Shown here one piece after another: positions 1,973 to 17,475 of a DNA stretch of 17,475 nucleotides (the stretch's first letter is position 1; each line of letters opens with the position of its first letter). The DNA is from Candidatus Baldrarchaeum yapensis (lineage in GTDB: Archaea; Asgardarchaeota; Baldrarchaeia; Baldrarchaeales; Baldrarchaeaceae), in the NCBI GenBank assembly GCA_016840465.1, contig JAEOSH010000049.1:1-17475 (forward strand), read 5' to 3'. The position numbers and the translations under genes are program-made. The notes under the pieces are model-generated. The model saw only the letters and a program-made list of their open reading frames with translations, was not told the origin of the DNA and did not search any database.

Positions 1973-2062
1973 TGTAAACTCCCTTAGAACGTTATTTGGA
2001 GATATATGTAAAAAAGTGTGAAGTTGTTCGATGGCACGATATTGTTACTGCGTCCGGGAATC

Positions 2063-2479
2063 TTAAACTTTCTGCTTTAAAAGTTCTTTTATGTAGTTGG
2101 CATATGCCTCTGCATTCATAAGGTTCTTAAGTTCCTCATCGAGGTTCGTCGCCTCAACTACTATCATCCATCCCTCTCCATAAGGGTCGTTATTCACGAG
2201 ATCGGGTTCATCTTCGAGCGATGCATTTACTTCGATCACCTTGCCCGATATTGGAGATATAAGTTCAGCGACTGTTTTAACGGATTCTATTTCACCGAAT
2301 TTCTCGAACTGCTTGACCTCAGTGCCAACCTCTGGTAATGAGACAAATGCTATGTCTCTTAGCTCTTTTTGTGCATAATCGGTAATTCCTACTCTTACCT
2401 TCCCATCTTCAACCTTTGCCCAGAGGTGGTCCTTGCTATAATACAAATCTTCCGGGACCTCGTAGTCGTCTACCTTCAT
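2063..2479 (-). CDS. gcvH: Glycine cleavage system H protein (lipoyl carrier)
   Basis: YSKDHLW, VGITDYAQKELRDI, lipoylation motif GEIESVKTV, SPISGKVIEVN, VNNDPYGEGW; SD GAGG upstream. Confidence 0.96.
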   Translation of the reverse strand: MKVDDYEVPEDLYYSKDHLWAKVEDGKVRVGITDYAQKELRDIAFVSLPEVGTEVKQFEKFGEIESVKTVAELISPISGKVIEVNASLEDEPDLVNNDPYGEGWMIVVEATNLDEELKNLMNAEAYANYIKELLKQKV

Positions 2480-2700
2480 ATAACCGCCTCACATGTATTC
2501 TGTCATTGGCACATACATCTCTCCTATTTATCAGTGTCGCCCACCAGAACAGAAGTCGGCATCCCTCATCCAAATATCTCACTCTATAAACCCGATAAAA
2601 ATTCTAGATTTTGACACCAGTTTCTCTAATTGTGCTTAACAAATAGTTATATAGGTGAAATTGAGATATTGAAATTCGTAACTCTTGCTTGCTGATCACC

Positions 2701-3669
2701 TTATGGGTCTCTTATGCCTTCCTCAGTTATCACAAACACTACCTCTCCTTCTGGCAGATAGGGACTATCGACCAATCGGCATATTCTCCTATTGTCCTTA
2801 GCTCTACGTAGATAGAGGCGTGTCTGAGGGACGTGCGCAAGCACATGACCTCCCACGGGCTCCGTTGGATCCCCGAAGTAAACATCTGGTCTCGCCATGA
2901 CTTGATTTGTCACGAAGACTGCAAGGTTGGCAACATCTGCAAGTCTTTGTAACATGTGAAGATGTCTGTTTAATTTCTGTTGACGCTCAGCGAGCATTTC
3001 ACGCCCAGGATACTCTGCACGAAAGTGTGAAGTTAGAGAATCTATAACAAGGAGCCTCACATTTTCATCTTCGACAACCTCCTGTGCTTGTTGTACTAGC
3101 AACATCTGATGATCAGAATTGTAGGCACGCGCGTAGATTATGTTCTTTAATGCAGTTTTTGGCTCCAATCCGATCGCTTGCGCCATCTGACATATTCTCT
3201 CCGGTCTAAACGTTCCCTCAGTATCTATGTAGATGGCTTTTCCGGATAGCCCTCCTTTTTCTGGTGGAAGTTGTACATTTACTGCAAGTTGATGCGCCAA
3301 TTGAGTCTTCCCGCTCCTAAAAGCTCCAAAAACTTCGGTGATAGCCTGAGTTTCTATACCCCCTGCCAGCAACTTATCTAAGTTCCTAGATCCAGTCGTT
3401 ATCCTTCCGACCTTCATTCTCTTCTCATATACAACATCTGCTGTTTCAAACCCGAGATCGAGTGCTTCACGGGCTGCTTCTATGATTTTCCGCGCAGCAT
3501 TTTCACCGATGTCCGCGGCGTTTGCCAATTCCGCTGGTGTGGCTACTGCTATCGAGATAATGTTCTTATAGCCCGCTTCCATCAGTTTTTTTGCGATTGC
3601 GGGGCCGACACCAGGCAGATCCATCAATTCTTTAGGTTTTCCTTTTTTCTTGTGTGAAATATTTGACAC
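2701..3669 (-). CDS. radA: DNA repair and recombination protein RadA
   Basis: N-terminal HhH ([12 protein letters not shown]), [18 protein letters not shown], Walker [46 protein letters not shown]; GTG start. Confidence 0.97.
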
Positions 3670-3735
3670 CCCAATTACAGTTGTTCTAAATACTTTTGTC
3701 TAAATTTGTCATTTTAAAGTAGAGTATTTAAGTTT

Positions 3736-3748
3736 TTAAAATGAGGGA
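3736..3748 (+). promoter_or_regulatory. TTAAAATGAGGGA motif, TATA-like, copy 1 (identical copy at 12588-12600)
   Basis: Exact 13-nt match to 12588-12600. Both copies lie in divergent intergenic regions 33-36 nt before a + strand start codon. Confidence 0.35.
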
Positions 3749-3784
3749 TTATAGTCTGATCAGTAGCGATGCGGGTGACCCCTA

Positions 3785-4198
3785 GTGTCACTTAAGATAA
3801 GGGCGATGAGACTGAAAAGGAGCATAAAAATGTTGCCAAAAAAAATTAAGATTCTCTTTAGGAAAATCCCCTTGAACATGGTAATCGCATACGGCTCTCT
3901 CATAACAACTTTGGTTCTAATCGCTGGGACCATCTATGCAGCCTTAAATGCAAATACTTTCTTCAGGGGGTTGTTATACCCAAGTATAAATGGGGAATTT
4001 GCAGCTGAGGCAATTGCAGCCACGTTTTTGATAATCTTGGGAATTTCGGGACTTGAACTTTTAAGAAGATGCGCAGCCCACATATATAGTCCCATGTATG
4101 CCAGAACTCTAGTCATGATAGGAATTATTCTCATCCTGATAGCGTTTTTCGGACTTGAATGGTTATTGTTCGCAAAAGCACCTTATATCTTCAAGTAA
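3785..4198 (+). CDS. Hypothetical membrane protein (about 3 transmembrane helices, basic N-terminus)
   Basis: 137-aa ORF filling the gap between divergent radA and convergent carS; three long hydrophobic stretches; no family recognised; start uncertain. Confidence 0.6.
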   Translation: MSLKIRAMRLKRSIKMLPKKIKILFRKIPLNMVIAYGSLITTLVLIAGTIYAALNANTFFRGLLYPSINGEFAAEAIAATFLIILGISGLELLRRCAAHIYSPMYARTLVMIGIILILIAFFGLEWLLFAKAPYIFK

Positions 4199-4202
4199 CG
4201 TA

Positions 4203-4811
4203 CTACCATGGGACATTCTTTAGACCAAGAATGTATCCCAGAGCATTCGTTAGTAAATGAATAATTAGCGTCACCACGAGAAGTATTGTCACGCATATAA
4301 ATGGTACTGTGAAAACAAATGACGTAAATAACAATGCACCGATAAGAAAGTCCAATTGATCCAGTAGTGGGGCAGGTGCACCTCTCTCGAGGCCAAGTCG
4401 TCTTTTAATGAAAGATCCTATGAGATCCCCTACCATTGCACCCATGGGTAAGAGTATTGCTATAATAAAATTCGTCCTGAGTAACGAACGCTGATATGGT
4501 AATAAAGTAACATGCTGTTCTATGAGTTTCTCTAGGGTGGGATTTACGAACACCTGTAAGAGGCCCACCAAGAATCCGCAAAATATTCCGGATATAAATC
4601 CCCTTATCGTTTTTCCATCACCAAATATTCTTCTTCCATCGAAAAACTTCTTCCCCAAGTCTATCGGCGTCCCTCCTCCAAGAAGTACCGGAGATGCGTT
4701 AGCAACATATGCGGGAAGAATAAACCATAAAGACAACAGTATATCCGTTGTTAATGTCGATTGCACACTCAACACCATCCATGGCAGTGGTCTTTTTACC
4801 ATAATCACCAC
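4203..4811 (-). CDS. carS: CDP-2,3-bis-(O-geranylgeranyl)-sn-glycerol (CDP-archaeol) synthase, UPF0290/DUF46
   Basis: PAYVANASPVLLGGGTPIDLGK..DGRRIFGDGKTIRG, GDLIGSFIKRRLGLERG, LLDQLDF, HLLTN..GY.LGLKNVPW. True start may be ATG 4802 or ATG 4778. Confidence 0.93.
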   Translation of the reverse strand: MVIMVKRPLPWMVLSVQSTLTTDILLSLWFILPAYVANASPVLLGGGTPIDLGKKFFDGRRIFGDGKTIRGFISGIFCGFLVGLLQVFVNPTLEKLIEQHVTLLPYQRSLLRTNFIIAILLPMGAMVGDLIGSFIKRRLGLERGAPAPLLDQLDFLIGALLFTSFVFTVPFICVTILLVVTLIIHLLTNALGYILGLKNVPW

Positions 4812-4816
4812 ACATA

Positions 4817-4824
4817 TTAATTAA
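4817..4824. promoter_or_regulatory. Palindromic TTAATTAA, candidate shared TATA box of divergent carS and ubiX operon
   Basis: Perfect AT palindrome in the 37-nt gap between the longest carS frame and the GTG at 4849, about 25-30 nt upstream of 4849. Confidence 0.4.
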
Positions 4825-4848
4825 CTATACTCATGTGTCCGCTAGGAA

Positions 4849-5265
4849 GTGGTGACATTTTCTGTGCGAGAACCATTACTGATAAAGAAAACCATTAGTG
4901 ATGTAAAGCATAGCGTATATGGACTACTTTTAACGCTAGATAACGGAGTATTGCTCTTAATTGGAGATTCTGGGTACAAACTTGGGGCCATCAGTATAGC
5001 TACTCCAATGCTGGGGGTTCCCGAGATGGGAGTAACATCATCTCTAATTTTTCCGTCACGAGATACTAGGGCAAATGTGCTGTCAAGGATACTCTCAGAA
5101 AGATGCGCACGCGCCCTAGGAATTCCATGCATGGCCATTGTTAATATAAAATTGCCGGATCATAGAGATCTTCAAAAGTTAATAATAAAATTGCTCGACC
5201 AACTAATATCCGAGGCAAAGAAGGTGCTTAAACATGAGAGTAGTAGTTGCAATGACCGGCTGTAG
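4849..5265 (+). CDS. Small protein of PAC4 (proteasome assembly chaperone 4)/LpdD-like type, tentative
   Basis: 138 aa; beta-rich N-half (LLLTLDNGVLLLIG, LGAISIATP), then helix NVLSRILSERCARALGIPCMAIVNI, resembling my recollection of PAC4/LpdD proteins; overlaps the ubiX start. Confidence 0.55.
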   Translation: MVTFSVREPLLIKKTISDVKHSVYGLLLTLDNGVLLLIGDSGYKLGAISIATPMLGVPEMGVTSSLIFPSRDTRANVLSRILSERCARALGIPCMAIVNIKLPDHRDLQKLIIKLLDQLISEAKKVLKHESSSCNDRL

Positions 5266-5794
5266 TGGAATCATATATGGTGTGAGACTACTTGAGACCC
5301 TTAAACAGGTGGATGGCATTATAACTTACCTTATAATATCAGACACTGCAAAGAAAATACTGAAACTCGAAACGCAATATTCCTTAGAAGATCTCAGAAA
5401 GATCTCATATGCGATTTTTTCGGAAGACGATATGATGGCCCCGCTTGCAAGTAGCTCCTTTAATATTGATGCTATGGTCATCGTCCCTTGTAGCCTAAAA
5501 ACGCTTTCCGCTTTAGCTTATGGTCTTTCACAAAACTTAATTGTAAGATGTGCTGATAATGTTTTGAGAACGAGAAAAAAATTGGTATTGGTTCCGAGAG
5601 AGACTCCTCTATCCGATATTCACTTAATAAATATGCTAAAACTTTTCAGGCGCGGAGCAATAATCCTTCCTGCGATGCCAGCTTTTTATCATAATCCTAG
5701 GACGATCGCAGATTTAATAGATTTCGTCGTTGGAAAGATTTTGGACGCTTTAAACATAAGATTGAATGTTTACACAAAATGGGGGACCATTTAA
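5234..5794 (+). CDS. ubiX: Flavin prenyltransferase UbiX
   Basis: VVVAMTGCSG..YG.RLL, MAPLASSS, VPCSLKTL, NLIVRCAD, KLVLVPRETPLS.IHL.NM, PAMPAFYHNP; SD AGGTG. Confidence 0.96.
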   Translation: MRVVVAMTGCSGIIYGVRLLETLKQVDGIITYLIISDTAKKILKLETQYSLEDLRKISYAIFSEDDMMAPLASSSFNIDAMVIVPCSLKTLSALAYGLSQNLIVRCADNVLRTRKKLVLVPRETPLSDIHLINMLKLFRRGAIILPAMPAFYHNPRTIADLIDFVVGKILDALNIRLNVYTKWGTI

Positions 5795-7107
5795 TGAGTT
5801 TAAGAGATTTTCTCGATTCATTGATTCCCACCAGCGTCAAAGTTATCGAGGAGGAGTTAGATGTAAAATTCGAGATTGCATATGTAATCAAAAAATTCGA
5901 GAGAGGCCCAACCCTGCTATTTACACGTATTAAAGGCTATCCCGATGCGAAAATAGTTTCAAACCTTTTCTTTAGCAGGGATAGTGTTCGAAAATGCCTC
6001 AACGTTAGTAGTTACACCGAAGTCTACGAGAAGATTCTATATGCAATTAGAAATCCATCACCCCCGCAGGAGGCATCTGATGCTCCTGTCTTGCAGGTCT
6101 CTCGGTCCCCAAATCTGCATGATCTCCCAGTACTCACATATTATGCACGAGATCCTGGACCTTATGTGACATCCGCTATTGTAATTGCACAAAATCGAGA
6201 AGGATCCATTAAAAACGCATCTGTGCATAGATTATTATTAAAAGATAAGCAACATTTCGTCATACGCATAGTCCCGCGTCATTTGTATACCATTCTTAAA
6301 GAATTCCACGAAAAAAACGAACCTCTCCCAGTAGCAATAGTAATAGGGGTGCATCCCCTATTACTATTATCTGCCGCATCTCCAGCCCCATTTGGAGTTT
6401 TTGAACTCCATGTCGCAAATACGCTGTTGAATGGAAGGTTAAGGACCATAAGTTCGCCGATATTTGGTATAGAAGTACCTGCTGATGCTGAATATTTAAT
6501 AGAAGGGGAAATTTTGCCTGAAGAGGCCGATGAGGGACCGTTTGTTGATATCACTGGAACATATGATGTTATGAGGAAACAACCCCTCGTAAGAGTAAAA
6601 AGGATATACCACAGGAAGCATCCGATCTTCCATGCAATTCTGCCAGCAGGCGCCGAACATAGGATATTCATGGGATTACCCATGGAGGCAAAAATTTGGG
6701 ATTATGTCCGTCAGTTAGTTCCTCACGTTAGAGGTGTTAATTTGACGGATGGTGGATGCGGGTGGCTACATGCGGTTATATCAATAAGGAAGAACACCGA
6801 TGGCGATGGAAAAAATGTAGCACTCGCCGCATTTGCAGCTCACCCGAGCCTGAAGCATGTAGTGGTAGTTGACGATGATATAAACCCTTATGATATGCGG
6901 GAAGTCGAATGGGCGATTGCAACAAGGTTTAATGCCGAAAGAGACCTAATAATAATAAGGGGGGCTCGTGGGTCGAGTTTAGATCCCACCGCCGATCAAA
7001 GAACACTTACTATTACAAAAATGGCAATCGACGCCACAAGGAGTTTTGATATACCAAAGCATAAGGTGGAAAAGGCCCATATACCAGTACCTAGGAAAGA
7101 GCGGTGA
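5794..7107 (+). CDS. ubiD: UbiD-family prFMN-dependent decarboxylase, probably anhydromevalonate phosphate decarboxylase
   Basis: NASVHRL, RIVPRHLY, EGPFVDITGTYD, KHVVVVDDDINP, EVEWAIATRF, GSSLDP, KMAIDAT. ATG 5794 overlaps the ubiX stop (TAATG); the ORF track starts at 5779. Substrate inferred from linkage to ubiX and aconitase X. Confidence 0.9.
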   Translation: MSLRDFLDSLIPTSVKVIEEELDVKFEIAYVIKKFERGPTLLFTRIKGYPDAKIVSNLFFSRDSVRKCLNVSSYTEVYEKILYAIRNPSPPQEASDAPVLQVSRSPNLHDLPVLTYYARDPGPYVTSAIVIAQNREGSIKNASVHRLLLKDKQHFVIRIVPRHLYTILKEFHEKNEPLPVAIVIGVHPLLLLSAASPAPFGVFELHVANTLLNGRLRTISSPIFGIEVPADAEYLIEGEILPEEADEGPFVDITGTYDVMRKQPLVRVKRIYHRKHPIFHAILPAGAEHRIFMGLPMEAKIWDYVRQLVPHVRGVNLTDGGCGWLHAVISIRKNTDGDGKNVALAAFAAHPSLKHVVVVDDDINPYDMREVEWAIATRFNAERDLIIIRGARGSSLDPTADQRTLTITKMAIDATRSFDIPKHKVEKAHIPVPRKER

Positions 7108-8339
7108 GTTCCATGTTCTTAACAAAGTATGAAGAGAGAGTTTTGGATGGTGAGTTTGGGCCAGCATTACAACTATCAATGAGGATACTAACAAAAATTG
7201 GTGACGCCTTAGGAGCCTCGCGCCTGATAAGAATTTCATCTGCACATGTATCAGGGATTTCGTACAAAAACATTGGCGATGCCGGACTGCAATTTTTAAA
7301 GCATTTGAGAAATCTGGGAGCAAGAGTATCTGTACTTACAACCTCAAACCCGTCGAGTTTTGGTCCCGAAATTTCAAAAATTGTGAAATTACCGGAGGAT
7401 TTTATCGCCAAACAGATGGAAGTACTTAGAATTCTTGAAGAAATGGGGATTCTTGCAACATATTCCTGTACACCATATTACTGCGGTAATGTCCCAAATT
7501 TTTCTGAACATATCGCCTGGGCGGAGTCCTCAGCAGTAGTTTTTGCAAATTCAGTACTCGGTGCAAGAACGAATAGGGAGGGTGGTCCGTCCTCGATTGC
7601 AGCAGCTATTGTTGGAAAGACTCCATTATATGGCCTACATATATGGGAAAACCGTTTACCGACAGTCTTGATAAAAATTACCTGCGACTTGCCAGACGAT
7701 CCCCTATTTTACAGCGCTTTAGGTTATCTCGTGGGATCCTTGGTTAAAAAAGGTGTCCCTTTATTTAGTGGCATAAAGGGGTGTTCGTCCGAGGCTCTTA
7801 GATGCCTTGCAGCTGGTATTGCGACATCTGGAAATATCGATATGTTCCACATAGAGGGTGCCACACCGGAGGCGATTATGCATTCAAATGACGATAGATT
7901 TCGTTTAAATATTGAGGAAAAGATTTCAATAGACCACGAGGAACTGAAGGATATAATAGAAGGGAACATTTCCGAATCACCAGATATTGTCTTTTTGGGA
8001 TGCCCACATTTATCAGCGAGAGAAATTATTTCGCTTCCGAGGATCATGCCCGAAATTTTCGAACAAAAATCTGCTGAAGTCTGGATTTGTACATCTAAAT
8101 GCCAGAAATCGATTCTTCCGGCGGGTTTTTTCCAACGGTTATGTTCTATGTACAAAAATGTAAAGGTATTCACTGACATGTGCCTAGTCGTATTTCCGGT
8201 GGAGTTCCTCGAGTGCAAGAGTATAGCTACGAATTCTTTTAAGGCATACTACTATTTGAGAAACACTAGTGAAAAGGAGATAGGAATATTCAGACCATAT
8301 CGCCACAAAAGCTATTACAACAACCACACGCGCTTATAA
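7104..8339 (+). CDS. Aconitase X catalytic (large) subunit, DUF521; probable phosphomevalonate dehydratase large subunit
   Basis: AHVSGISYKNIGDAG, YSCTPYY, AWAESSAVVFANSVLGARTNREGGPS.IAAAIVGKTP.YGLH, FHIEGATPE, FLGCPH, CLVVFP (three candidate Fe-S cysteines); GTGA overlap with the ubiD stop. Confidence 0.92.
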   Translation: MSSMFLTKYEERVLDGEFGPALQLSMRILTKIGDALGASRLIRISSAHVSGISYKNIGDAGLQFLKHLRNLGARVSVLTTSNPSSFGPEISKIVKLPEDFIAKQMEVLRILEEMGILATYSCTPYYCGNVPNFSEHIAWAESSAVVFANSVLGARTNREGGPSSIAAAIVGKTPLYGLHIWENRLPTVLIKITCDLPDDPLFYSALGYLVGSLVKKGVPLFSGIKGCSSEALRCLAAGIATSGNIDMFHIEGATPEAIMHSNDDRFRLNIEEKISIDHEELKDIIEGNISESPDIVFLGCPHLSAREIISLPRIMPEIFEQKSAEVWICTSKCQKSILPAGFFQRLCSMYKNVKVFTDMCLVVFPVEFLECKSIATNSFKAYYYLRNTSEKEIGIFRPYRHKSYYNNHTRL

Positions 8340-8425
8340 CAAAGTTTTTAGCAAAAATTTCGGGTATAATAGAGGTGAGAGGCTGGCAAAAAAGGCCAAG
8401 AATAACTCACGGAGAGGAGCTTTAA

Positions 8426-9694
8426 ATGCCAAAAAAACAGTACTGGAGTTTCATAAAGGATCCGCTCTATGGATACATACATATTACGGACTTTGAGAGG
8501 GAGCTAATAGATACTCGCGTCGTGCAAAGGCTGAGAAGAATAAAACAACTAGCAGGCGCTGAATATGTATATCCGGGTGCAAATCATACGAGATTTGAGC
8601 ATTCGATAGGAGTAATGTATTTGGCGGGTGTACTTGCGGAAAGCTTACCGGTAGAACTCTCTGACGACGAAATATGTATGGTCAAGATCGCAGGCCTGCT
8701 TCATGACGTTGGACATGGTCCCTTCTCTCATCTCTTCGAATCTATTTCAACAAAATACTTAGGGAAAACTCACGAGAGTTTCACACAATGGCTAATCAGG
8801 GAGACCGAAATTGCCGATATATTGTCAAATGGGGGCTTCTCGCCGCAGGAAATAAGTGATCTTGCCGTTGGTAAGTATGAGAGAAAGGGAAAAAGATTCC
8901 TGGGACAGATAATTTCGAGTGCAATAGATGTTGATAAAATGGATTTCGTGCCAAGAGACTCCTACCATACTGGTGCAGGATATGGAAATGTAGATGTTTT
9001 TCGACTCATTTACACTATGGATGTTCTGGATAACAATTTAGCAGTAGATATGACCGCAATATCCGCGCTTGAAACATTCATCCTTGCACGCGTTGAATCC
9101 TTCCGCTCAATATACTTTCATAAAGTCGCACGTGCCGCACAGATAATGATTGCACTTGCTATGGAAAGGGCTAAAGAAGATTATCCCATCCTCGTGGGGT
9201 TCAAGTCGCCAGACGAGTTCCTCGAACTCGACGATTATAGCGTATGGGCAATGCTGAAGTCTTCGAAAAAGTCCGAAGAAATCTTAAGGAAGCTTGAAAG
9301 GAGAGATTTACTTAAAGTTGCTTACTCAAAAACTTTTTATGTGAAGGATCAGTTCATCCAGAACCTATTTATCAACGAAACCATTAGAAGAAATCTCGAA
9401 AACGAAATAGCAGAAACCGCCGGCGTTGATTATGAGGACGTTATTATAGACGTGCCAACAGTTCCGTCGGTCCCTTACGGTCACTCTCTCGGAATCGAAC
9501 CAATGGAAATTCCTGTATTCTCAAGGGGACTAGGAGGCGAAAAAATTCCCGAGAAATTGTCTGAAGTCTCAAATGTCATTACCGCACTCAAAGGGTTTAT
9601 GAACATCATTAGAATTTACACGTGGAAAGACCTCAGAGAAAAGGTTGCCGCTGCAGCAGAAAAAATATTCGGGGATGATCAAAAGACAAAATAA
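8426..9694 (+). CDS. HD-domain phosphohydrolase (SAMHD1/YdhJ-like dNTP triphosphohydrolase family)
   Basis: IKDPLYGYI, QRLRRIKQL, YPGANHTRFEHSIG, LLHDVGHGPFSH, DVDKMDFVPRD, YFHK; SD GGAGAGGAG. Confidence 0.92.
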   Translation: MPKKQYWSFIKDPLYGYIHITDFERELIDTRVVQRLRRIKQLAGAEYVYPGANHTRFEHSIGVMYLAGVLAESLPVELSDDEICMVKIAGLLHDVGHGPFSHLFESISTKYLGKTHESFTQWLIRETEIADILSNGGFSPQEISDLAVGKYERKGKRFLGQIISSAIDVDKMDFVPRDSYHTGAGYGNVDVFRLIYTMDVLDNNLAVDMTAISALETFILARVESFRSIYFHKVARAAQIMIALAMERAKEDYPILVGFKSPDEFLELDDYSVWAMLKSSKKSEEILRKLERRDLLKVAYSKTFYVKDQFIQNLFINETIRRNLENEIAETAGVDYEDVIIDVPTVPSVPYGHSLGIEPMEIPVFSRGLGGEKIPEKLSEVSNVITALKGFMNIIRIYTWKDLREKVAAAAEKIFGDDQKTK

Positions 9695-9726
9695 TACATT
9701 ACAGACCACATGGTGGTTAATTCAAT

Positions 9727-11721
9727 ATGCCGCGGGCGCCATTCTTAGGTGAAGTGAAGCTATTCTGGTGCGAGTATTGTAACGTTCCTTTACTCTCTAG
9801 TAAGTGCAGTAAATGTGGGAGAGAGGGTGTCGGGAACGGAATTATCAAAGTTCCAATAACCCCGCCTGGCGACGTAAGACCTGCCTTTGAATGCGATTTA
9901 AAACTGATAAGATCGATAGTGAACAGAGATTATGGATCTAGAGTCGGGGATAGGGTTGTCCCAGGAGACAAGATAGTTCTACTAAATAGAGCCCCAGACA
10001 TTGATCGTATGGATGAAGTCATCATCGACGGAAAAGTTATAGGAATGATAAGATACGATTTGAAAAGACAAAATTGGGAATTCTTGCCCAAAATATCGGG
10101 TGCAAGAAGATTATACATGTATGGTGCTAGAAAATGGATAAAAATAGATAAAGGCGCAGCAGATGCTATTTTAAATGGTTTAAATCTGCTTATACCCGGA
10201 ATAGTAGATTTGGATCAGAACATTAAGAGAGAGGATAACGTAATCATCGTTAATGAAAGAAGTGAAGTTATTGCAACCGGTAGGTCGAAAATTTCGGCCA
10301 GAGAATTAAAATACCTTGAGAAAGGACTGGCAGTGAAGGTAAGAGAGGCTTCTCCACCTGTCAATGAAAGAATAAATCCCGGAGGACAAACGTGGCATGA
10401 CGTCCTAGAGGCAAATTCCGAATTCTTGGAGAAAGAGGAACAAAAATCGATCTCCCTTATACGTAAAGTTGTTAGAAAATACAAAAAGGACGTCACTGTT
10501 GCATTCAGCGGAGGCAAAGACAGTCTTGCAACATTATTACTAGCGATGAAGGCCCTTGACACATCATTTAAAATACTATATGTTGACACAGGAATTGAGT
10601 TCCCCGAGACCGTCAAATATTCGGAAAAAATATTTGATTTACTTGGTGTAAAGCGGAATGTTCTGCGCAAACATGTGAGTGAAAATGTTTTTTGGAATCT
10701 CACAGAAAAATTTGGCCCACCTGGCAGAGACTTCAGATTTTGTTGCAAAACTAATAAACTTGGACCAATAGCCCAATTGATTTCATCGCACTTCAAAAAT
10801 GGTTGTATAACCTTAATTGGTGTACGAAGGTATGAATCCGAGCGCCGGGCCAGAGATGCAAGTATATGGGAAAACCCTTGGGTTCCGAATCAGATAGCAT
10901 TCTCCCCTATAAGAAATTGGACCGCACTGCACGTGTGGCTATATATATTCCGTGAAGGACTCCCTTACAATCCTCTCTACGAGTTTGGCTTTACTAGACT
11001 CGGATGTTGGCTCTGTCCCGCCATGAGATTAGGAGACATAAGTATAATTAGGGCATCCCATAAAGACCTCTGGGAAAAATGGGAGACTTTCCTAGTTAAT
11101 TGGGCCGATAAGCATGATCTTAACTCGGATTGGCTAAAGTATGGACTTTGGAGATGGAAAAATCCACCTGAATCTCTTCTAAGGTCATTATCCATATCTG
11201 ATATCAGTAAGTTGAAAAGTAAGTCATCAAAAAGAACTCCTCTCTCCTGTACGGTAATAATAGGTCCTGAGGGTTGCAATAGGGATATTTTCTCCGCAAA
11301 TGGCATCATATCTCCAGGTAATATTGATCTTCGGATTTTGTCGGTATATTTAACGCCATTAGGTCATGTATACTTATCAAATAAGTTAAATGTGATAAGA
11401 TTATTGGCAAAGGATGGATCACTTACTTGCTACATTTACGAAGATGGATCCTTTAAGGTAATAAGCAGAAAACAGATGACGATGGACGTCTTTGCCAAAA
11501 AGGTAAGGTCCTTCGTGAAGCAACTGCTTTTGACAATTTTGAGGGCCAAAAACTGCACAAAATGTGGAATCTGTTCGTCAAAATGCCCCGAGAAGGCAAT
11601 AACAATTTTTAATGGAAAATTTATGATAAATTCGAATTTATGCAAGCATTGTGGCCTCTGTATTCAAAATTGTCCCGTTAATTTGTTGCAGGACAACCTA
11701 TTAGTCAGTTTTGTGCAGTAA
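9727..11721 (+). CDS. PAPS-reductase-family protein with N-terminal Zn-ribbon/PUA domain and C-terminal 2x[4Fe-4S] ferredoxin
   Basis: WCEYC..CSKC, PUA-like WIKIDKGAADAILNGLNLLIPGI, PP-loop AFSGGKDS, FCCKTNK, GVRRYES.RR, RLGCWLCP, CTKCGICSSKCP and CKHCGLCIQNCP. Confidence 0.9.
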   Translation: MPRAPFLGEVKLFWCEYCNVPLLSSKCSKCGREGVGNGIIKVPITPPGDVRPAFECDLKLIRSIVNRDYGSRVGDRVVPGDKIVLLNRAPDIDRMDEVIIDGKVIGMIRYDLKRQNWEFLPKISGARRLYMYGARKWIKIDKGAADAILNGLNLLIPGIVDLDQNIKREDNVIIVNERSEVIATGRSKISARELKYLEKGLAVKVREASPPVNERINPGGQTWHDVLEANSEFLEKEEQKSISLIRKVVRKYKKDVTVAFSGGKDSLATLLLAMKALDTSFKILYVDTGIEFPETVKYSEKIFDLLGVKRNVLRKHVSENVFWNLTEKFGPPGRDFRFCCKTNKLGPIAQLISSHFKNGCITLIGVRRYESERRARDASIWENPWVPNQIAFSPIRNWTALHVWLYIFREGLPYNPLYEFGFTRLGCWLCPAMRLGDISIIRASHKDLWEKWETFLVNWADKHDLNSDWLKYGLWRWKNPPESLLRSLSISDISKLKSKSSKRTPLSCTVIIGPEGCNRDIFSANGIISPGNIDLRILSVYLTPLGHVYLSNKLNVIRLLAKDGSLTCYIYEDGSFKVISRKQMTMDVFAKKVRSFVKQLLLTILRAKNCTKCGICSSKCPEKAITIFNGKFMINSNLCKHCGLCIQNCPVNLLQDNLLVSFVQ

Positions 11722-11740
11722 TAGATTCGCCTTCACTTAT

Positions 11741-12148
11741 TTACTCGGATCCTGTCTGCGCTTTTATTTCTGATAGTATCTCCTTCCGCAACTTTGCCAC
11801 TTGATGTATATCTATGGGTTCCGCCTCCTTTATTACCGTCTTTAACTGTATCACATTCCCCACCGCGCTTATATCTTCACTATCAACGGGAAACTCTATG
11901 TCTAGGCCCTTAACTATAAGCTCTACTTTGAGGTCCGGAAGCTTTAATTTGACACTCCTAACAACACCCACACGCCTCGCGAGTCCATCTATTACCTCCT
12001 TCCCAATTATGTGACCCGGTACCCTCAACTCGTAGAGCTCTACTTCTATCGTTGGTAGTATTTCGAGATCCTTCTCCATACTTGACACCTCTTTAATACT
12101 TTTTCGTAAAGCTTTAAAAGAATAGTAATCTTCGAATAATACTCGCAT
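11741..12148 (-). CDS. PRC-barrel domain protein
   Basis: Central segment IIGKEVIDGLARRVGVVRSVKL...FPVDSEDISAVGNVIQLK matches the PRC-barrel pattern; SD GTGAT; 8 nt downstream of UPF0148. Confidence 0.7.
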   Translation of the reverse strand: MRVLFEDYYSFKALRKSIKEVSSMEKDLEILPTIEVELYELRVPGHIIGKEVIDGLARRVGVVRSVKLKLPDLKVELIVKGLDIEFPVDSEDISAVGNVIQLKTVIKEAEPIDIHQVAKLRKEILSEIKAQTGSE

Positions 12149-12156
12149 TGATCACG

Positions 12157-12516
12157 TTAACCCTTTATCCTCTTGATTTTCTCAAGTGCTTCGAGAGTTA
12201 TCACGAGTATTCTCATAAGATCGTATAGATTCCCCATGTCGGTCTCCCGCGATATCTTAGAACCCAACTCTTGAATTTTCACTATCAGCGATTCTTCAAG
12301 CGCTGTTAAAACCGACGTTCTGAGGTAAACTGTTGCCTCTTCATCCCGTTTTACTATAACGACCTTCTTTTGACACGAGGGACAATAAACATCCCCACCG
12401 ACCTTAAAAAGAGGACTGTGACATACCGGACAAGTTTCCGATAACATCACTGCCCCCGCTCTCAGCAAATCAACCATCCTTGCCAACTTCTCCGCATCAC
12501 TTCTGTCTTCTGTCAT
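12157..12516 (-). CDS. UPF0148 / SSSCA1-like zinc-ribbon protein
   Basis: MVDLLRAGAVMLSETCPVCHSPLFKVGGDVYCPSC followed by a helical tail; divergent from UPF0147 as is common in archaea. The ORF track starts at GTG 12525; ATG 12516 has SD GTGAT. Confidence 0.88.
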   Translation of the reverse strand: MTEDRSDAEKLARMVDLLRAGAVMLSETCPVCHSPLFKVGGDVYCPSCQKKVVIVKRDEEATVYLRTSVLTALEESLIVKIQELGSKISRETDMGNLYDLMRILVITLEALEKIKRIKG

Positions 12517-12587
12517 GTTAATCACATAATCGCAATTTTTTTCTTAAGAACACTAACTTTCTCTTAATTGTAGGGACACCATCTCCA

Positions 12588-12600
12588 TTAAAATGAGGGA
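12588..12600 (+). promoter_or_regulatory. TTAAAATGAGGGA motif, TATA-like, copy 2, upstream of UPF0147
   Basis: Identical to 3736-3748; 33 nt before ATG 12634. Confidence 0.35.
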
Positions 12601-12633
12601 GATCGCCCGTTTAACAGTTTCGGAGGGAGTAAT

Positions 12634-12926
12634 ATGAGCGAAGAGGTCCAGGAGAAAATTACGCAAGCAACTCAGATACTAAAATCCATTGCGGAAGACA
12701 CGTCGGTGCCACGGAACATACGCAGAGCTGCTAACGAAGCAATGGAGGTAATTCTAAAAGGTGAGGGCACTCCCGCAGTAAGAGCAGCAAACGCAATTTC
12801 AATACTCGATGAGGTCTCCCAAGACCCAAACCGGTAGACTTGAGTCTACCGGGGGTAAACTGTCCACTTCATGCTAGAACAAAAATCTGGAACGTTGTTA
12901 GCATACTGGAAACTATAAAAGATTAA
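12634..12926 (+). CDS. UPF0147 family protein, split by an intron: join(12634..12829,12859..12926), 87 aa
   Basis: Exon 1 gives EDTSVPRNIRRAA..AVRAANAISILDEVSQDPN. Exon 2, in another frame, gives CPLHARTKIWNVVSILETIKD*, the expected family C-terminus (DPNxPxHAR.IWNVVSILET). SD GGAGGGAG; 264 nt spliced. Confidence 0.9.
12830..12858 (+). other. 29-nt bulge-helix-bulge (BHB) intron in a protein-coding gene
   Basis: ACCC(12824-27)/GGGT(12853-56) central helix, AAA bulges at 12828-30 and 12857-59, 10-bp intron stem CCGGTAGACT/AGTCTACCGG. Cutting after the second bulge nucleotide on each strand restores the frame (GAC CCA AAC TGT CCA). Confidence 0.88.
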
Positions 12927-12942
12927 AGCGGGAGTCCCCGGG

Positions 12943-14364
12943 ATGGTAAAAGCTAGAGTTAAAGGTATCTATGCGACTGCACTCTCAAAGCTACTAATCG
13001 ATCACGGATACTCGTTGACACAATGCTCTAAAACCATAGAAAACCGCCTCAAAATCTCTAGTGACTTCGATGCACCAGATGTGGATATAAAGGATAGTGA
13101 TGACCACCATTCCATCATAATTTCCGGAAAGAAAGAACTAGTGGATAATGTCATAAAAATATTAACTGATACCCTTCCTAACCCCATAATTTATAAATCA
13201 AAGGTTGCAGTAAACTCCATTTACCTCGGCGTGGTCGATGAAATCTCCGAGGAGGGCTCTGTCATAGATCTGGGACATGCAAAAGGCGTAATACCCGGCA
13301 AAGAACTGGAATTGGGAAGTAAGGTACTTGTTAGGGTTATTAATCCTGGAATAAAGTATGAGCAAATAACATTAAGCGATGAACTCACGATTCCAGGGAA
13401 ATACGCGATCCTAATACCATCAAACACAATAAAGATAAGCAAAAAGATAAGAAATCCAGATACTAGGCAAACACTTCTCGCATTGGGCCTTTCAATCAAA
13501 CCTCCAAATTGGGGAATCCTCTGGAGAACCGCTGCTAGTGCACAATCCATGCAAACGCTAATAGAGGAAGTGAAGTACCTTAAACAGATCGCTGAGGACA
13601 TATCGTCGGCTTTTGAGAGAGAAAACCCGCCAAAATTACTATTTGAGGGAGAGTATATCGCCATTGTCGAACTGCCGTACGAGTCAAAGTGCGAACTCGA
13701 CAAAATACGTTCTGAGGTCACACCAACAATAAAGGGCCATCATTATTACAAGTCATTAGGAAGATGTACGTCTATGCTCGTCGATATGGCGGAAAATATG
13801 TTATCCTCACTCCCACGAGCAGGAGATTCGATACTACAAACATTTAATAACATAATTAGTGGAATCTACCCTAAAATTGGCGATATCCTCCAAATAACCC
13901 ACATAAAACTCGATGGAAGAGTTTTCGAGTTAACTCCTGGAAGAATCCTAAGCGTCCGAAGATTTAACGGAGAGATTTCCTTTACAATAAAAAGACAGTT
14001 CAGGGAGGGCGGTTACTACGACGGACTTGATGTTCCAAAGGAACGTGGAGACTATGGAATCACAGAGATAAAAGTAGGAAACTGGTATATGAAAACCAGA
14101 TACTTCTCAAGTACTGGAAAACTCAAAGGAGAGTACTATAACATCTCGACAGGAATAGAATTCATCCCACCTAATAAAATTAGATATATCGACTTGGCGG
14201 TTGACCTCGTAAAATACCCTGACGGAACGGTGAAAGTGCTCGATATCGATGAATTGAAAAGAGCCGCAGAAGAGGGTTATATAAGCAAGCGAACATATGA
14301 TAATATCATGGAAAAGGTAAAATACCTAGAAGAACTATTAAAGGAAGGCAAGGAGCCGGGGTAG
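12943..14364 (+). CDS. RNA-binding protein / probable ribonuclease FAU-1 (AU-1; RNase E/G-like region plus DUF402)
   Basis: KARVKGIYATALSKLL, WGILWRTAA, IKGHHYYKS, GGYYDGLDVPKE.GDY.ITE, GEYYNISTGIE, RYIDLAVDLVK.PDG.V.VLD.DEL; SD GGAG. Confidence 0.92.
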   Translation: MVKARVKGIYATALSKLLIDHGYSLTQCSKTIENRLKISSDFDAPDVDIKDSDDHHSIIISGKKELVDNVIKILTDTLPNPIIYKSKVAVNSIYLGVVDEISEEGSVIDLGHAKGVIPGKELELGSKVLVRVINPGIKYEQITLSDELTIPGKYAILIPSNTIKISKKIRNPDTRQTLLALGLSIKPPNWGILWRTAASAQSMQTLIEEVKYLKQIAEDISSAFERENPPKLLFEGEYIAIVELPYESKCELDKIRSEVTPTIKGHHYYKSLGRCTSMLVDMAENMLSSLPRAGDSILQTFNNIISGIYPKIGDILQITHIKLDGRVFELTPGRILSVRRFNGEISFTIKRQFREGGYYDGLDVPKERGDYGITEIKVGNWYMKTRYFSSTGKLKGEYYNISTGIEFIPPNKIRYIDLAVDLVKYPDGTVKVLDIDELKRAAEEGYISKRTYDNIMEKVKYLEELLKEGKEPG

Positions 14365-14378
14365 CCTAGCCAGGCCAA

Positions 14379-14394
14379 AACTGAAAGTGGCTAA
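14379..14394 (+). other. 16-nt non-canonical D-loop tRNA intron (about position 22/23), relaxed BHB
   Basis: GGCC/GGCT helix, AAA and AAG bulges, ACT-GAA-AGT apical stem. Removal gives D arm GCCT-AGCCAGGCCA-AGGC, parallel to the intron-free tRNA-Leu D arm. Confidence 0.8.
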
Positions 14395-14409
14395 GGCGGC
14401 GGACTCGAG

Positions 14410-14437
14410 ATCTGCTCCTCTGGGGCTAGATCGTGAA
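14410..14437 (+). other. 28-nt canonical-position (37/38) tRNA intron
   Basis: Removal restores the 7-nt anticodon loop. Central helix CTCG/CGTG has one U-U mismatch, 3' bulge AAA, intron hairpin ATCT-GCTCC/GGGGC-T-AGAT. Confidence 0.85.
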
Positions 14438-14525
14438 ATCCGCTGGCCCCTCGGGCCGCGCGGGTTCAAATCCCGCCCCCGGCGCCAACTTTTCTATTAT
14501 GCTAGCAATGGTGCCCCATCATTAA

Positions 14526-15407
14526 ATGGCAAGCAAGGGCGATTCTCCAATGCGACGTGAAATAGACGTGATGGTAAAGGAAATAAAAGAAAGATTTGGA
14601 ATTGTCGGAAGAGAAAAAGAATTGAGAATGGCATTAGCCGCAAAACTCTCCGGCAGACACCTCCTCCTCGAAGGAGACGTTGGCGTCGGAAAGACTTTGC
14701 TCGCATCCGCAATTGCACAGTACTTTGGTCAGCCAATGTACAGAGTCGATGGTGATGAAAGATATACGGAGTCGAAACTCGTCGGATACTGGGATCCGCC
14801 ACTTGTAATCGCCTATGGGTATGATTACGAGAAAAGTTTTATACCCGGACCCTTAACCCGCGCAATGCTCGAAGGAGGAATCCTTTTCATAAATGAGTTG
14901 AATAGACTTCCTGAATCAACACAAAATGTTCTATTACCCGCAATGGACGAACGTAAGATAACTATCCCAAAAATAGGCATAATAGAGGCAAAAAATGGTT
15001 TCTTCATAATAGCAACACAAAATCCTCGAGAGTATGTTGGCGTTTCTGCACTCAGTGAGGCCCTCCGCGATAGGTTCGTGTGGATAAAACTCGATTACCA
15101 GAGTGAGGAGGAAGAAAGAGAAATCGTAAGACTGCGAACAGGTTGCACGGATCCTACGATCGTAGAAATAGCCGTTAAAATATGTAGAGCTACAAGAGAA
15201 CATCCTCATATAAGGCGTGGCGCATCGGTGAGAGGTGCAATAGACCTAGTGAGCATCTTGCAAAAATTCGGAAGTTATGAGACGGAGGACTGGATAAATG
15301 CCGCACTGATGGCACTTGGCACAAAAATAGAAATCGATGAGAGCAATGAAAGATCTGTTGAGGACATAATCTCCGAAATTGTGGTATCAATACTGGAAAA
15401 TTTTTGA
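14526..15407 (+). CDS. MoxR-family (CoxD-like) AAA+ ATPase
   Basis: IVGREKEL, Walker A LLLEGDVGVGKT, Walker B variant LFINELNR, LLPAMDER, IIATQNP, LSEALRDRF, GASVRG.IDL; followed by a VWA gene. Confidence 0.92.
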   Translation: MASKGDSPMRREIDVMVKEIKERFGIVGREKELRMALAAKLSGRHLLLEGDVGVGKTLLASAIAQYFGQPMYRVDGDERYTESKLVGYWDPPLVIAYGYDYEKSFIPGPLTRAMLEGGILFINELNRLPESTQNVLLPAMDERKITIPKIGIIEAKNGFFIIATQNPREYVGVSALSEALRDRFVWIKLDYQSEEEEREIVRLRTGCTDPTIVEIAVKICRATREHPHIRRGASVRGAIDLVSILQKFGSYETEDWINAALMALGTKIEIDESNERSVEDIISEIVVSILENF

Positions 15408-16504
15408 ATATCCCCTCAAAAATTAGAAAGAAAACGGAACTTCACGGCACATTTGACAAAAAGATACTCTTTGGAAATATATCCCGTGAAGATCTCCTAG
15501 TTCTAGAAATAAAGAACCCTCGTAGACCGCCGGATTACTACACCAATCTCGCAAAATCATTAGATTATGCAAAAATAAAGGATGTGATTAGAAGGTCGAT
15601 AGAGGAATTTAATGTATCTGCATTCATAGGACTTTGTAGAGCGAATGTCCACGCCGCAATTGAGGCTCTCATAACGGAACCGCCCGCAAACGTAATCCTC
15701 AGAAAAGCAGCTTATGAGTTTCCTCGTCAAACGTATGCACTCTTCTTCCTGTTGAGAAGAAAATTGCCACCGGATATTAAAAAGCGATTCCTAGATGCCA
15801 TAAAATCAGCACTTGTAAGGAAAATCATAGGGATTTCGTTTACAATGGGAAGGAGAGAAAAGAAAAGAACCTATGATTTTCATGAGGAGTTTCATGAGGA
15901 GTTTGATCTTGACGAGACTTTAGAGAGGTTACTGGAGAAACGTATGAGCCCACTCTCATACTCGGACATAGTATGGTTAAAGAGAATGGAAAAGAGAAAT
16001 GCATGCATACTCATGCTTGACACCAGCGGATCTATGTATGGAGAAAAGAACTTAATCGCTGCTATGGCCGCAATAACAGTTGCCTATAGATTAAAGAACT
16101 CGGAACTCGGAATAGTGGCTTTTAACACTTCGGCTATGGTAGTAAAGCACGTAAACTCAAGAGAAAATATCGGAGTCGTTCTTGACAAAATCTTGGAACT
16201 CGAGGCCTCCGGCTACACAAATATCCGTGACGCCCTGCGAAAAGGACTCGCCGAACTCAGAAAATCAAAGGCAAAGAAAAGATGGGGACTGCTTATAACC
16301 GATGGTATGTACAACACTGGCGGAGACCCCAGACCACTCGCCAGAAAATTCCCTAAACTTCACGTCATAGCTCTACCCGCCCAAAACCCCCATGGTCTCA
16401 AGGTGTGTAGAGACCTTGCATACCTCGGTAAGGGAAGATTGGCTATCGCTAAAGGGTTCAGCGATCTAGGACCTCTACTCCTCGACATATTAGGTAAAGT
16501 ATAA
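15404..16504 (+). CDS. VWA-domain (CoxE-like) partner of the MoxR ATPase
   Basis: FDLDETLE, MIDAS motif LMLDTSGSM, GYTNI, LLITDG, GGDP; TTG start overlaps the ATPase stop (TTGA). Confidence 0.9.
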   Translation: MNIPSKIRKKTELHGTFDKKILFGNISREDLLVLEIKNPRRPPDYYTNLAKSLDYAKIKDVIRRSIEEFNVSAFIGLCRANVHAAIEALITEPPANVILRKAAYEFPRQTYALFFLLRRKLPPDIKKRFLDAIKSALVRKIIGISFTMGRREKKRTYDFHEEFHEEFDLDETLERLLEKRMSPLSYSDIVWLKRMEKRNACILMLDTSGSMYGEKNLIAAMAAITVAYRLKNSELGIVAFNTSAMVVKHVNSRENIGVVLDKILELEASGYTNIRDALRKGLAELRKSKAKKRWGLLITDGMYNTGGDPRPLARKFPKLHVIALPAQNPHGLKVCRDLAYLGKGRLAIAKGFSDLGPLLLDILGKV

Positions 16505-16507
16505 AAA
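16500..16507 (+). promoter_or_regulatory. TATA box (TATAAAAA) for tRNA-Leu, overlapping the VWA stop codon
   Basis: Purine-rich GGTAAAG (BRE-like) precedes it; located about 30-37 nt before the tRNA 5' end. Confidence 0.5.
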
Positions 16508-16536
16508 CTCTCACAAAAAACTATAACCTTGAACGT

Positions 16537-16624
16537 GCGGGGGTGGCCGAGCCAGGTCAAAGGCGACGGGCTCAGGACCCGTTGGCGTAGGCCTGCGTGG
16601 GTTCAAATCCCACCCCCCGCACCA
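16537..16624 (+). tRNA. tRNA-Leu(CAG), intron-free, CCA encoded
   Basis: Acceptor GCGGGGG/CCCCCGC, A73, anticodon stem ACGGG/CCCGT with CAG at 16573-16575, variable arm GGC-GTAG-GCC, T arm GTGGG-TTCAAAT-CCCAC. Confidence 0.97.
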
Positions 16625-16738
16625 TATTCTTGAATTATGCGGCATCTTTGAGCTTTATCCATGATGTTACGGATTTCACTCTCAATTTTTACGATGCTAA
16701 TGCCTTAAACTTCCTGTTATTAAATTTTAATTATCTTC

Positions 16739-17475
16739 TAGTACTTCTGAAACTCCTTCTCGGAGAATGCGAAGGGTTTATGCGGCCGCCCGCCGGCACT
16801 TAACAGTATGAGAGACCGACACAACCCCAAAAGGGCGAAACGCGCACCGGCGGGCGACCGAAATACGGCACGGCGGGCGCAGTATTTAAGCGTATCGGCG
16901 GTCGCGGGGGCGCTCCCGCGCTCCATACGCGGCTACAAGATCAATCGAGCGTCTCTCTTGGATCCTGACGAGCGCTACTGTCTCCAATGACTTCGTGACG
17001 TCCGCCGCGCGGCCACTTCATGTGCATCCCGACTCGGTGGCCTTCCAGCTGAGGAAAATAGGAATGCGCGACGCTGAGAGTCTCAACGAGATCCTCGGGG
17101 AGATCGCCGCCAGAGTGCTGCGCCGCAGGAGGGTATTGGTCGCGATAGACACAACCGAAGTTCCCTACTTCGGCACACGCGACGAGTGGGTCCACTACTC
17201 CCCCGCCAAGAAGTGCTACGTGCAGAGGTACGTCGTGGCGGCCGCCATCGACGGCCCACGGAAGATCCCACTCTCCATAAGGCCCATCTCCATGTTCGAC
17301 AGCCGCGCCGACGCCGTGGAGGCGGTGCTTCGTGACATCGAGAAGCTGAGGCTTGAGGTCGAGGGGGTCTACATGGATTGTGGCTTTTTCTCCGTGGAGG
17401 TCATGGAGGTTCTCGCGAGAAGGAACATCCCGTTTGCGATCGCCGCCAGGAGGACGGCGGGCATAAGGAGGGTTC
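16739..17475 (+). mobile_element. ISH3-family (IS4 superfamily) insertion sequence, left part; right end outside window
   Basis: Abrupt GC rise (hand count 37/60 GC at 17101-17160 versus 22/60 at 13441-13500) and a DDE transposase frame. Candidate left end TAGTACTTCTGAAAC at 16739 resembles the CAGTAC.. ends I recall for ISH3 elements; boundary unverified. Confidence 0.75.
16808..17475 (+). pseudogene. ISH3-type DDE transposase, apparently frameshifted near 16951-16960, truncated by window edge
   Basis: A frame open from 16890 to the window end encodes ..HPDSVAFQLRK..VLVAIDTTEVPYFG..GVYMDCGFFSVEV.. (D at 17148, D at 17376). The probable N-terminus is ORF 16808-16990 in another frame. Not in the ORF track. 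Confidence 0.8.

Follow-up and report, generated by a model that had tools for sequence, protein, structure and literature searches.

A probable tRNA-type bulge-helix-bulge intron in the UPF0147 protein gene of the Asgard archaeon Candidatus Baldrarchaeum yapensis

How can a small protein gene break off inside the most conserved motif of its family and resume a few nucleotides further on in another reading frame? The question is raised by the UPF0147 gene in a 17,475-nt stretch of the Candidatus Baldrarchaeum yapensis genome (assembly GCA_016840465.1, contig JAEOSH010000049.1, positions 1 to 17,475, hereafter the window). A Shine-Dalgarno-like site, GGAGGGAG, was read directly at 12622-12629 (+ strand) and ends 4 nt 5' of an ATG at 12634, from which an open reading frame (12634-12837, +) of 67 residues runs to a TAG at 12835-12837, its product ending in SQDPNR. 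The C-terminus typical of the family, CPLHARTKIWNVVSILETIKD, lies with its stop codon at 12861-12926 in a frame that differs from that of the upstream ORF. A preliminary description of the locus had noted both the end at DPNR and the resumption in another frame, and direct reading together with the list of ORFs bears this out. The break sits within the DPNCP motif, the most conserved of the UPF0147 family, whose PDB relatives 2QZG and 2QSB are both of unknown function. The most convincing answer, and one considered very probable here, is that the gene carries a genuine 29-nt tRNA-type bulge-helix-bulge (BHB) intron, which interrupts the Asn codon of DPNCP in phase 1 and is spliced from the mRNA.

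On this reading, exon 1 (12634-12829, +) comprises 65 codons and the first base of the Asn codon, giving a phase-1 junction, the predicted intron (12830-12858, +) holds the in-frame TAG that ends the unspliced ORF, and exon 2 (12859-12926, +) supplies bases 2 and 3 of the Asn codon, a further 21 codons (CPLHARTKIWNVVSILETIKD) and the stop. Excision of 12830-12858 yields GAC CCA AAC TGT and a product of 87 aa, with a predicted exon 1-exon 2 junction reading ...GACCCAAACTGTCC... / ...CAAGACCCAAACTGTCCACTTC... once the insert is removed. Searched against PF03685 (gathering cut-off 23.6 bits), the truncated ORF matches profile positions 2-62 of 81 with 83.4 bits, while the joined product, with an X at the break, matches positions 2-81 of 81 with 117.8 bits and no indel, in agreement with the 87-aa protein that the preliminary description had expected from this excision. 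A six-frame search of the genome with the same profile returns two pieces that abut, covering profile positions 2-62 and then 62-81, and a profile search of the genome finds UPF0147 as a single copy.

The source genome is a metagenome-assembled genome of 100 contigs, and an artefact of assembly or sequencing might accordingly be suspected; the preliminary description had itself listed this among the possible refutations. Per-run Logan contigs from three hydrothermal/sediment metagenome runs, at least one of which may be the MAG's own source sample, nevertheless span 12600-12960 at 26-40x without a single difference or gap, so that the insert is present in separate assemblies of three runs, and an intron-less joint was not seen in the contigs of these runs that cover 12600-12960. 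As homologous inserts also occur in independent genomes, the probability of an artefact is close to nil. In one of the runs (X3, record 4), a low-depth contig of 151 nt over 12799-12926 shows 18 mismatches and no gap across the intron; a diverged strain in this sample thus appears to retain an insert of the same length.

When the RNA of 12805-12876 is folded with RNAfold, the minimum free energy (MFE) and the centroid structure both correspond to a BHB motif (-27.1 kcal/mol, z = -3.0), and 2 of 200 shuffled sequences are as stable. In the predicted MFE fold the central helix H pairs ACCC of exon 1 (12824-12827, +) with GGGU of the intron (12853-12856, +), the 5' strand lying in the exon and the 3' strand in the intron as in the 37/38 tRNA intron. 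The helix is bordered by two AAA bulges, the 5' one at 12828-12830 (+) with a predicted cut at 12829/12830, the 3' one at 12857-12859 (+), unpaired in the fold, with a predicted cut at 12858/12859. Beyond them lies, on one side, the intron hairpin h' (12831-12852, +), with a 9-bp stem (12831-12839/12844-12852) and a UUGA loop (12840-12843). On the exon side, helix h (12822-12823 with 12860-12861, +) consists of 2 bp only, A12822-U12861 and G12823-C12860, which are possible pairs, already named in the preliminary description and absent from the MFE structure; it is followed by an internal loop and then by a distal 7-bp exon-exon helix of the MFE fold, formed by AUGAGGU (12809-12815, +) and ACUUCAU (12866-12872, +). 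What the preliminary description had presented as a textbook hBHBh' motif therefore stands with respect to the ACCC/GGGU helix, the AAA bulges and the cuts; the perfect intron stem of 10 bp that it described has 9 bp and a UUGA loop, a loop of only 2 nt being unable to form, and its outer helix GAGGU/ACUUC holds in its pairs and is in fact longer, at 7 bp. Since h beside the 3' bulge has only 2 bp, the predicted motif is relaxed rather than strictly canonical hBHBh', and by this reckoning would rely on an EndA of broad specificity.

A 31-nt intron at the identical site and in the identical phase of UPF0147 was found in four relatives. The closest (L203) is a Logan contig whose protein, 97% identical, is likewise called as 67 aa; the other three (L033, L034 and L035) are the species of a genus of another Asgard class, g71, where the 31-nt insert occurs in 3/3 species. 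Comparison of orthologues for compensatory changes had been proposed in the preliminary description, and such changes were indeed found. Many third codon positions of the exons have changed between the window and L203, yet 26/26 helix bases are identical; the loop of the intron hairpin is UUGA in the former and GUUCGC in the latter, with the stem unchanged. In g71 the central helix reads AUCC/GGAU, a C-G pair of the window's lineage having become U-A with both sides changed, and five of the nine pairs of the intron stem are likewise changed on both sides between the lineages, which brings the number of such pairs among the five sequences to six (one in H, five in h'). All pairs of h (2 bp), H (4 bp) and h' (9 bp) are nonetheless kept in 5/5 sequences (100% paired), helix h showing a single A-U to G-U change, compared with 35-45% pairing when the register is shifted by 1-3 columns as a control. 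Shuffles score 0.233 for covariation, against 0.414 for the five sequences, a value that 0/500 of the shuffles reach. The preliminary description had named as a refutation the finding of relatives that carry the insert while both its BHB and exon 2 have decayed; such relatives were sought, and the opposite was found. The distal 7-bp helix behaves differently: it is kept in L203, with a G-U to A-U and a U-A to U-G change, and is 68.6% paired over the five orthologues, being maintained in the window's lineage only, and is therefore probably auxiliary to the motif.

The relatives also bear on where the RNA would be cut. Because both bulges in the window are AAA, the exact cut sites are not fixed by the window alone. 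The 3' bulge is AUA in L203 and L033 and AAA in L034 and L035; where the bulges are AAU/AUA, in L203 and L033, the Asn codon is restored only if both are cut after their second base (CCA AAC UGU in L203), by which the predicted cut positions are settled. Canonical cuts yield the near-invariant Asn, conserved in at least 90% of the UPF0147 family, in 5/5 sequences. The same comparison can be turned on the idea that ribosomes cross the insert without any RNA splicing, either by frameshifting or by bypassing in the style of phage T4 gene 60. In the window, this idea is attractive at first sight, as the AAC at 12829-12831 before the in-frame stop matches the AAC at 12858-12860 before exon 2, the two are separated by a hairpin, and a hop would yield the same DPNC product. 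That the take-off and landing codons match follows, however, from both bulges being AAA; in L203 and g71 a ribosome would have to take off from AUC, for which the landing site offers no in-frame match, and Asn could not be produced. Moreover, bypassing leaves unexplained both the covarying 4-bp helix with its 3-nt bulges and the presence of this motif in five other genes, described below, and it is regarded as very unlikely.

If exon 2 is read by way of splicing, its codons should matter in the spliced frame, and this was assessed from the differences over its 22 codons. Window and L203 differ by 12 synonymous and 0 non-synonymous changes; the window lineage (window and L203) and g71 differ by 12-15 synonymous and 2 non-synonymous changes, one of the latter positions being the stop; within g71, 1-5 synonymous and 0 non-synonymous changes are found. 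These counts show purifying selection acting on exon 2 in its spliced reading and exclude a dead exon. This weighs heavily against the proposal of a pseudogene, or of a recent disruption of the gene by a small hairpin element, with an incidental BHB-like fold and an unexpressed exon 2. The unspliced frame does stop inside the insert, and BHB-like motifs with short stems are common by chance in this genome (1030 matches with stems of at least 6 bp versus 1193 in the reversed-sequence control). A dead exon would, however, show a different pattern of substitution, five species or strains from two classes have retained the insert at one site, with compensatory changes in it, and the gene is the genome's sole copy of a family present in 365/400 Asgard species genomes searched and in 87/90 of the high-quality ones. 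A pseudogene can hence be given very little credence.

It is also conceivable that the gene is split, exon 2 being translated alone from its own start and the two pieces assembling as proteins. An in-frame TTG at 12840 opens a 28-aa ORF in the window, which would provide such a start, but this codon lies in the hairpin loop and is unconserved: the insert of L203 contains no in-frame start, the g71 species vary in this respect, and the interrupted genes of a second Odinarchaeia genus, g3, which carry an insert at another site (see below), have no start codon of any kind between the stop and exon 2. Nothing comparable to the GGAGGGAG site with a start codon was found before exon 2, and the break would fall within the most conserved motif of the family. 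A split gene thus has hardly any claim to be believed. The explanation that fits these data best is a spliced intron, and all predictions of the preliminary description's BHB-intron reading that could be tested at the level of sequence held.

The source genome encodes the proteins that such splicing would call for. Besides RtcB (contig C30, 609 bits), it contains two EndA paralogues, both with an N-terminal and a C-terminal endonuclease domain: one of 193 aa with the catalytic His (region 16145-16384 of contig C56) and one of 195 aa without it (region 4158-4412 of contig C53). An (alpha-beta)2 enzyme, into which they would presumably assemble, is expected to be built from such a pair. Asgard EndA has been reported to be an (alpha-beta)2 enzyme, its L1 loop being linked to a broad substrate range (PMC5829648), and this type is also tied to the splicing of cbf5 mRNA in Crenarchaeota (PMC2738675 and its reference 2). 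In the mechanism envisaged, the ACCC of the exon and the GGGU of the intron would form the 4-bp central helix in the pre-mRNA, flanked by the two 3-nt bulges, the 9-bp intron hairpin and the short exon-exon helix. The two-subunit EndA, inferred to be (alpha-beta)2, would cleave both bulges after their second base, and RtcB would then ligate the exons and probably circularise the intron. The spliced mRNA would encode the full 87-aa UPF0147, whereas the unspliced mRNA would give the 67-aa product without the conserved C-terminal helix. Transcription and translation are coupled in archaea, and half of the BHB is coding sequence; that the motif would have to form ahead of the ribosomes counts against this mechanism, a difficulty shared with cbf5.

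Cutting by EndA might alternatively serve mainly as a switch for regulation or decay, weak ligation or conditional splicing setting the level of UPF0147 and perhaps of FAU-1. A precedent exists in yeast, where EndA-type enzymes cut some mRNAs without a spliced product being formed (review PMC10485636). In the window, a FAU-1-like gene (RNase E/G and DUF402 domains, 12943-14364, +) follows the UPF0147 stop by 16 nt on the same strand, and the two could be co-transcribed. On the other hand, purifying selection on exon 2 is strong, and therefore the joined product is presumably made and matters, such that regulation could act only on top of splicing and not instead of it. A switch of this kind as the main role of the motif is improbable.

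In the Asgard genomes searched, UPF0147 is uninterrupted nearly everywhere, the exceptions being the lineage of the window and L203, g71 and g3. The latter genus (Candidatus Odinarchaeota at NCBI; L021, L023, L024 and L025) lacks the site-1 intron in 4/4 species and has instead, also in 4/4, a different in-frame insert of 27 nt containing a stop, nine codons downstream at the junction ARTK | IWN (about 1513-1587 of L021/L023/L024/L025). This insert folds into a GCAC/GUGU helix with two AAA bulges and an 8-bp stem, is 96.9% paired and shows one compensatory pair. The changes inside it are non-synonymous yet preserve the structure, and to judge from this pattern it is an RNA element by signature and not coding sequence, in keeping with a second-site BHB intron. 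Within the class Odinarchaeia (g71 and g3), UPF0147 is thus interrupted in 7/7 species at two different sites. Among the five species of the window's own class, the intron is found in the source genome only, and the four species of the sister family are without it; therefore, the introns at the same site in two classes need several losses or repeated gain. The genome-by-genome survey covered Asgard archaea only; among the best 80 GTDB loci from all archaea and the best 80 JGI metagenome contigs, as ranked by match quality, no further interrupted UPF0147 was found.

The preliminary description had also forecast that more such genes may exist in this lineage, and the second site in Odinarchaeia is one instance of this. 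Others come from the source genome itself, which was scanned for the same BHB geometry, with subsequent Pfam searches on candidate products read through with an X. Since the motif with shorter stems is uninformative without homology, as the excess of matches in the reversed control shows, only stems of at least 8 bp were followed up. In five further genes one Pfam domain spans the predicted junction, assuming canonical cuts and with inserts of 28-32 nt: pcm (C78 18122-18153, +; PCMT profile 2-208/210), aIF5B/infB (C67 54628-54657, -; GTP_EFTU domain), rpoN (C67 57987-58017, -; RNA_pol_N profile 1-58/58), porC (C56 106639-106666, -; POR profile 1-173/173) and a radical SAM gene split within its CxxxCxxC motif (C66 13809-13837, -). 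Most of these breaks are, like the one in UPF0147, within highly conserved motifs. Two candidates failed the Pfam junction test and were rejected, a HEPN protein (C65 10045-10071) and CobN (C12 9363-9391, -), in which the CobN match begins only at profile position 297. A BHB-like insert was also observed to adjoin an MTAP-like gene (C59 5854-5881, -), with the motif INYRANI right after it; in the CobN and MTAP-like cases the cut register or the upstream exon may be different from the model. A genome scan for the mirror geometry, with the 5' strand of the central helix within the intron, gave no convincing case in which a gene is restored.

Together with UPF0147, the source genome accordingly holds at least six interrupted genes, and the intron described here is not isolated, given two intron sites in one small gene and five more interrupted genes. 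From these six or more genes, the interruption in 7/7 Odinarchaeia species and a site occupied in two classes while a sister family lacks the intron, a picture can be drawn in which introns are gained, lost and re-inserted at preferred sites. The balance tips slightly towards a reading in which BHB introns have, as a population, colonised protein genes in a few related Asgard lineages, that of UPF0147 being one of them. Should it be true, these relatives of eukaryotes would need their tRNA-splicing machinery to act on mRNA in order to make essential proteins such as aIF5B and RpoN.

The closest known counterpart is the intron of cbf5, the case in which endonuclease splicing of an archaeal protein gene has been confirmed, in Crenarchaeota (PMC2738675), with hosts in Aeropyrum, Sulfolobus and Desulfurococcales (Watanabe 2002, Yoshinari 2006, Yokobori 2009, PMC2738675). 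Both are short, relaxed BHB introns within protein-coding sequence, both occur in hosts with a hetero-oligomeric splicing endonuclease and with a patchy, lineage-specific presence, and in both cases annotators miscall the gene as truncated or frameshifted. They differ in that cbf5 belongs to Thermoproteota, while the gene studied here is UPF0147, of unknown function, in the Asgard phylum and with two distinct intron sites in related lineages, and in that splicing was shown experimentally for cbf5 and is deduced from sequence for UPF0147. With its UPF0147 host and its Asgard lineage, the element described here falls outside the cbf5 intron family proper (cbf5 of Desulfurococcales/Sulfolobales) and would be the same kind of element.

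The BHB of HVO_1309 in Haloferax volcanii reportedly lies in a 5' region and does not split a conserved protein motif, and the splicing endonuclease of this species is said to be of strict specificity. Like the predicted intron of UPF0147, it is an archaeal mRNA substrate of the tRNA splicing endonuclease (Schwarz 2020, PMC7714728), but the Haloferax volcanii EndA is a homodimeric alpha2 enzyme (PMC10485636), unlike the two-subunit set found here. A 2023 review lists cbf5 and HVO_1309 as the two archaeal mRNA substrates and expects more (PMC10485636). BHB introns of tRNA and rRNA, including those at non-canonical positions, occur with (alpha-beta)2 or epsilon2 EndA (PMC5829648, PMC12397907) and share with the predicted UPF0147 intron the 4-bp helix, the two 3-nt bulges, the cuts after the second bulge base and the enzymes EndA and RtcB. 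In UPF0147, by contrast, the host molecule is an mRNA, splicing must restore the reading frame, and the exon strand of the central helix is for this reason constrained by its codons (GAY CCA).

A more distant parallel is offered by HAC1 and XBP1 of eukaryotes, whose mRNAs are recognised through twin stem-loops, cleaved by IRE1 and ligated by RtcB or Trl1 in a stress-regulated manner. What they have in common with the proposed UPF0147 splicing is the removal of a short, frame-changing mRNA intron by proteins only, guided by structure, with joining by a tRNA ligase and an altered C-terminus as the outcome. IRE1 is unrelated to EndA, however, and twin stem-loops are not a BHB, so that this is an analogy and no membership is claimed. 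The UPF0147 case would bear on how mRNA is spliced by proteins alone, whether EndA or IRE1 together with RtcB, within the lineage that stands nearest to eukaryotes.

In the literature searched, mostly without subscription journals, no description was found that links UPF0147 or Asgard protein genes to BHB introns, and a 2026 preprint on Asgard tRNA introns leaves mRNA unmentioned. UPF0147 would add a new gene family and, with Asgard archaea, a new phylum to the BHB introns of protein genes, which are proverbially rare in archaea and have hitherto been essentially those of crenarchaeal cbf5, and the comparative evidence for it is as strong as sequence alone permits. The database cluster for the source UPF0147 protein contains 67-aa forms only, and such genes are systematically miscalled as truncated or as pseudogenes. 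These introns draw attention to the competition between splicing and coupled translation, to possible regulation of the splicing, and to the routes by which one codon came to be occupied by BHB introns in different lineages.

A few minor features of the window may be recorded. A perfect 13-bp inverted repeat, AATAGTAATAGGGG ... CCCCTATTACTATT, lies at 6336-6366 inside an intact UbiD-family ORF (5779-7107); it was considered as an intron and rejected, as the Pfam match of this ORF runs unbroken across it. Just past the FAU-1 stop, at 14459-14476 (+), there is a tRNA-like T-arm and acceptor 3' end, a weak match to the 3' end of tmRNA, at which neither ARAGORN nor Rfam reports a whole tRNA. Upstream of UPF0147, the divergent neighbour (12157-12525, -) encodes a zinc-ribbon protein of the Sjogren/scleroderma autoantigen p27 family (PF06677), and the order of the p27-like gene, UPF0147 and FAU-1 is kept in the relative L203.
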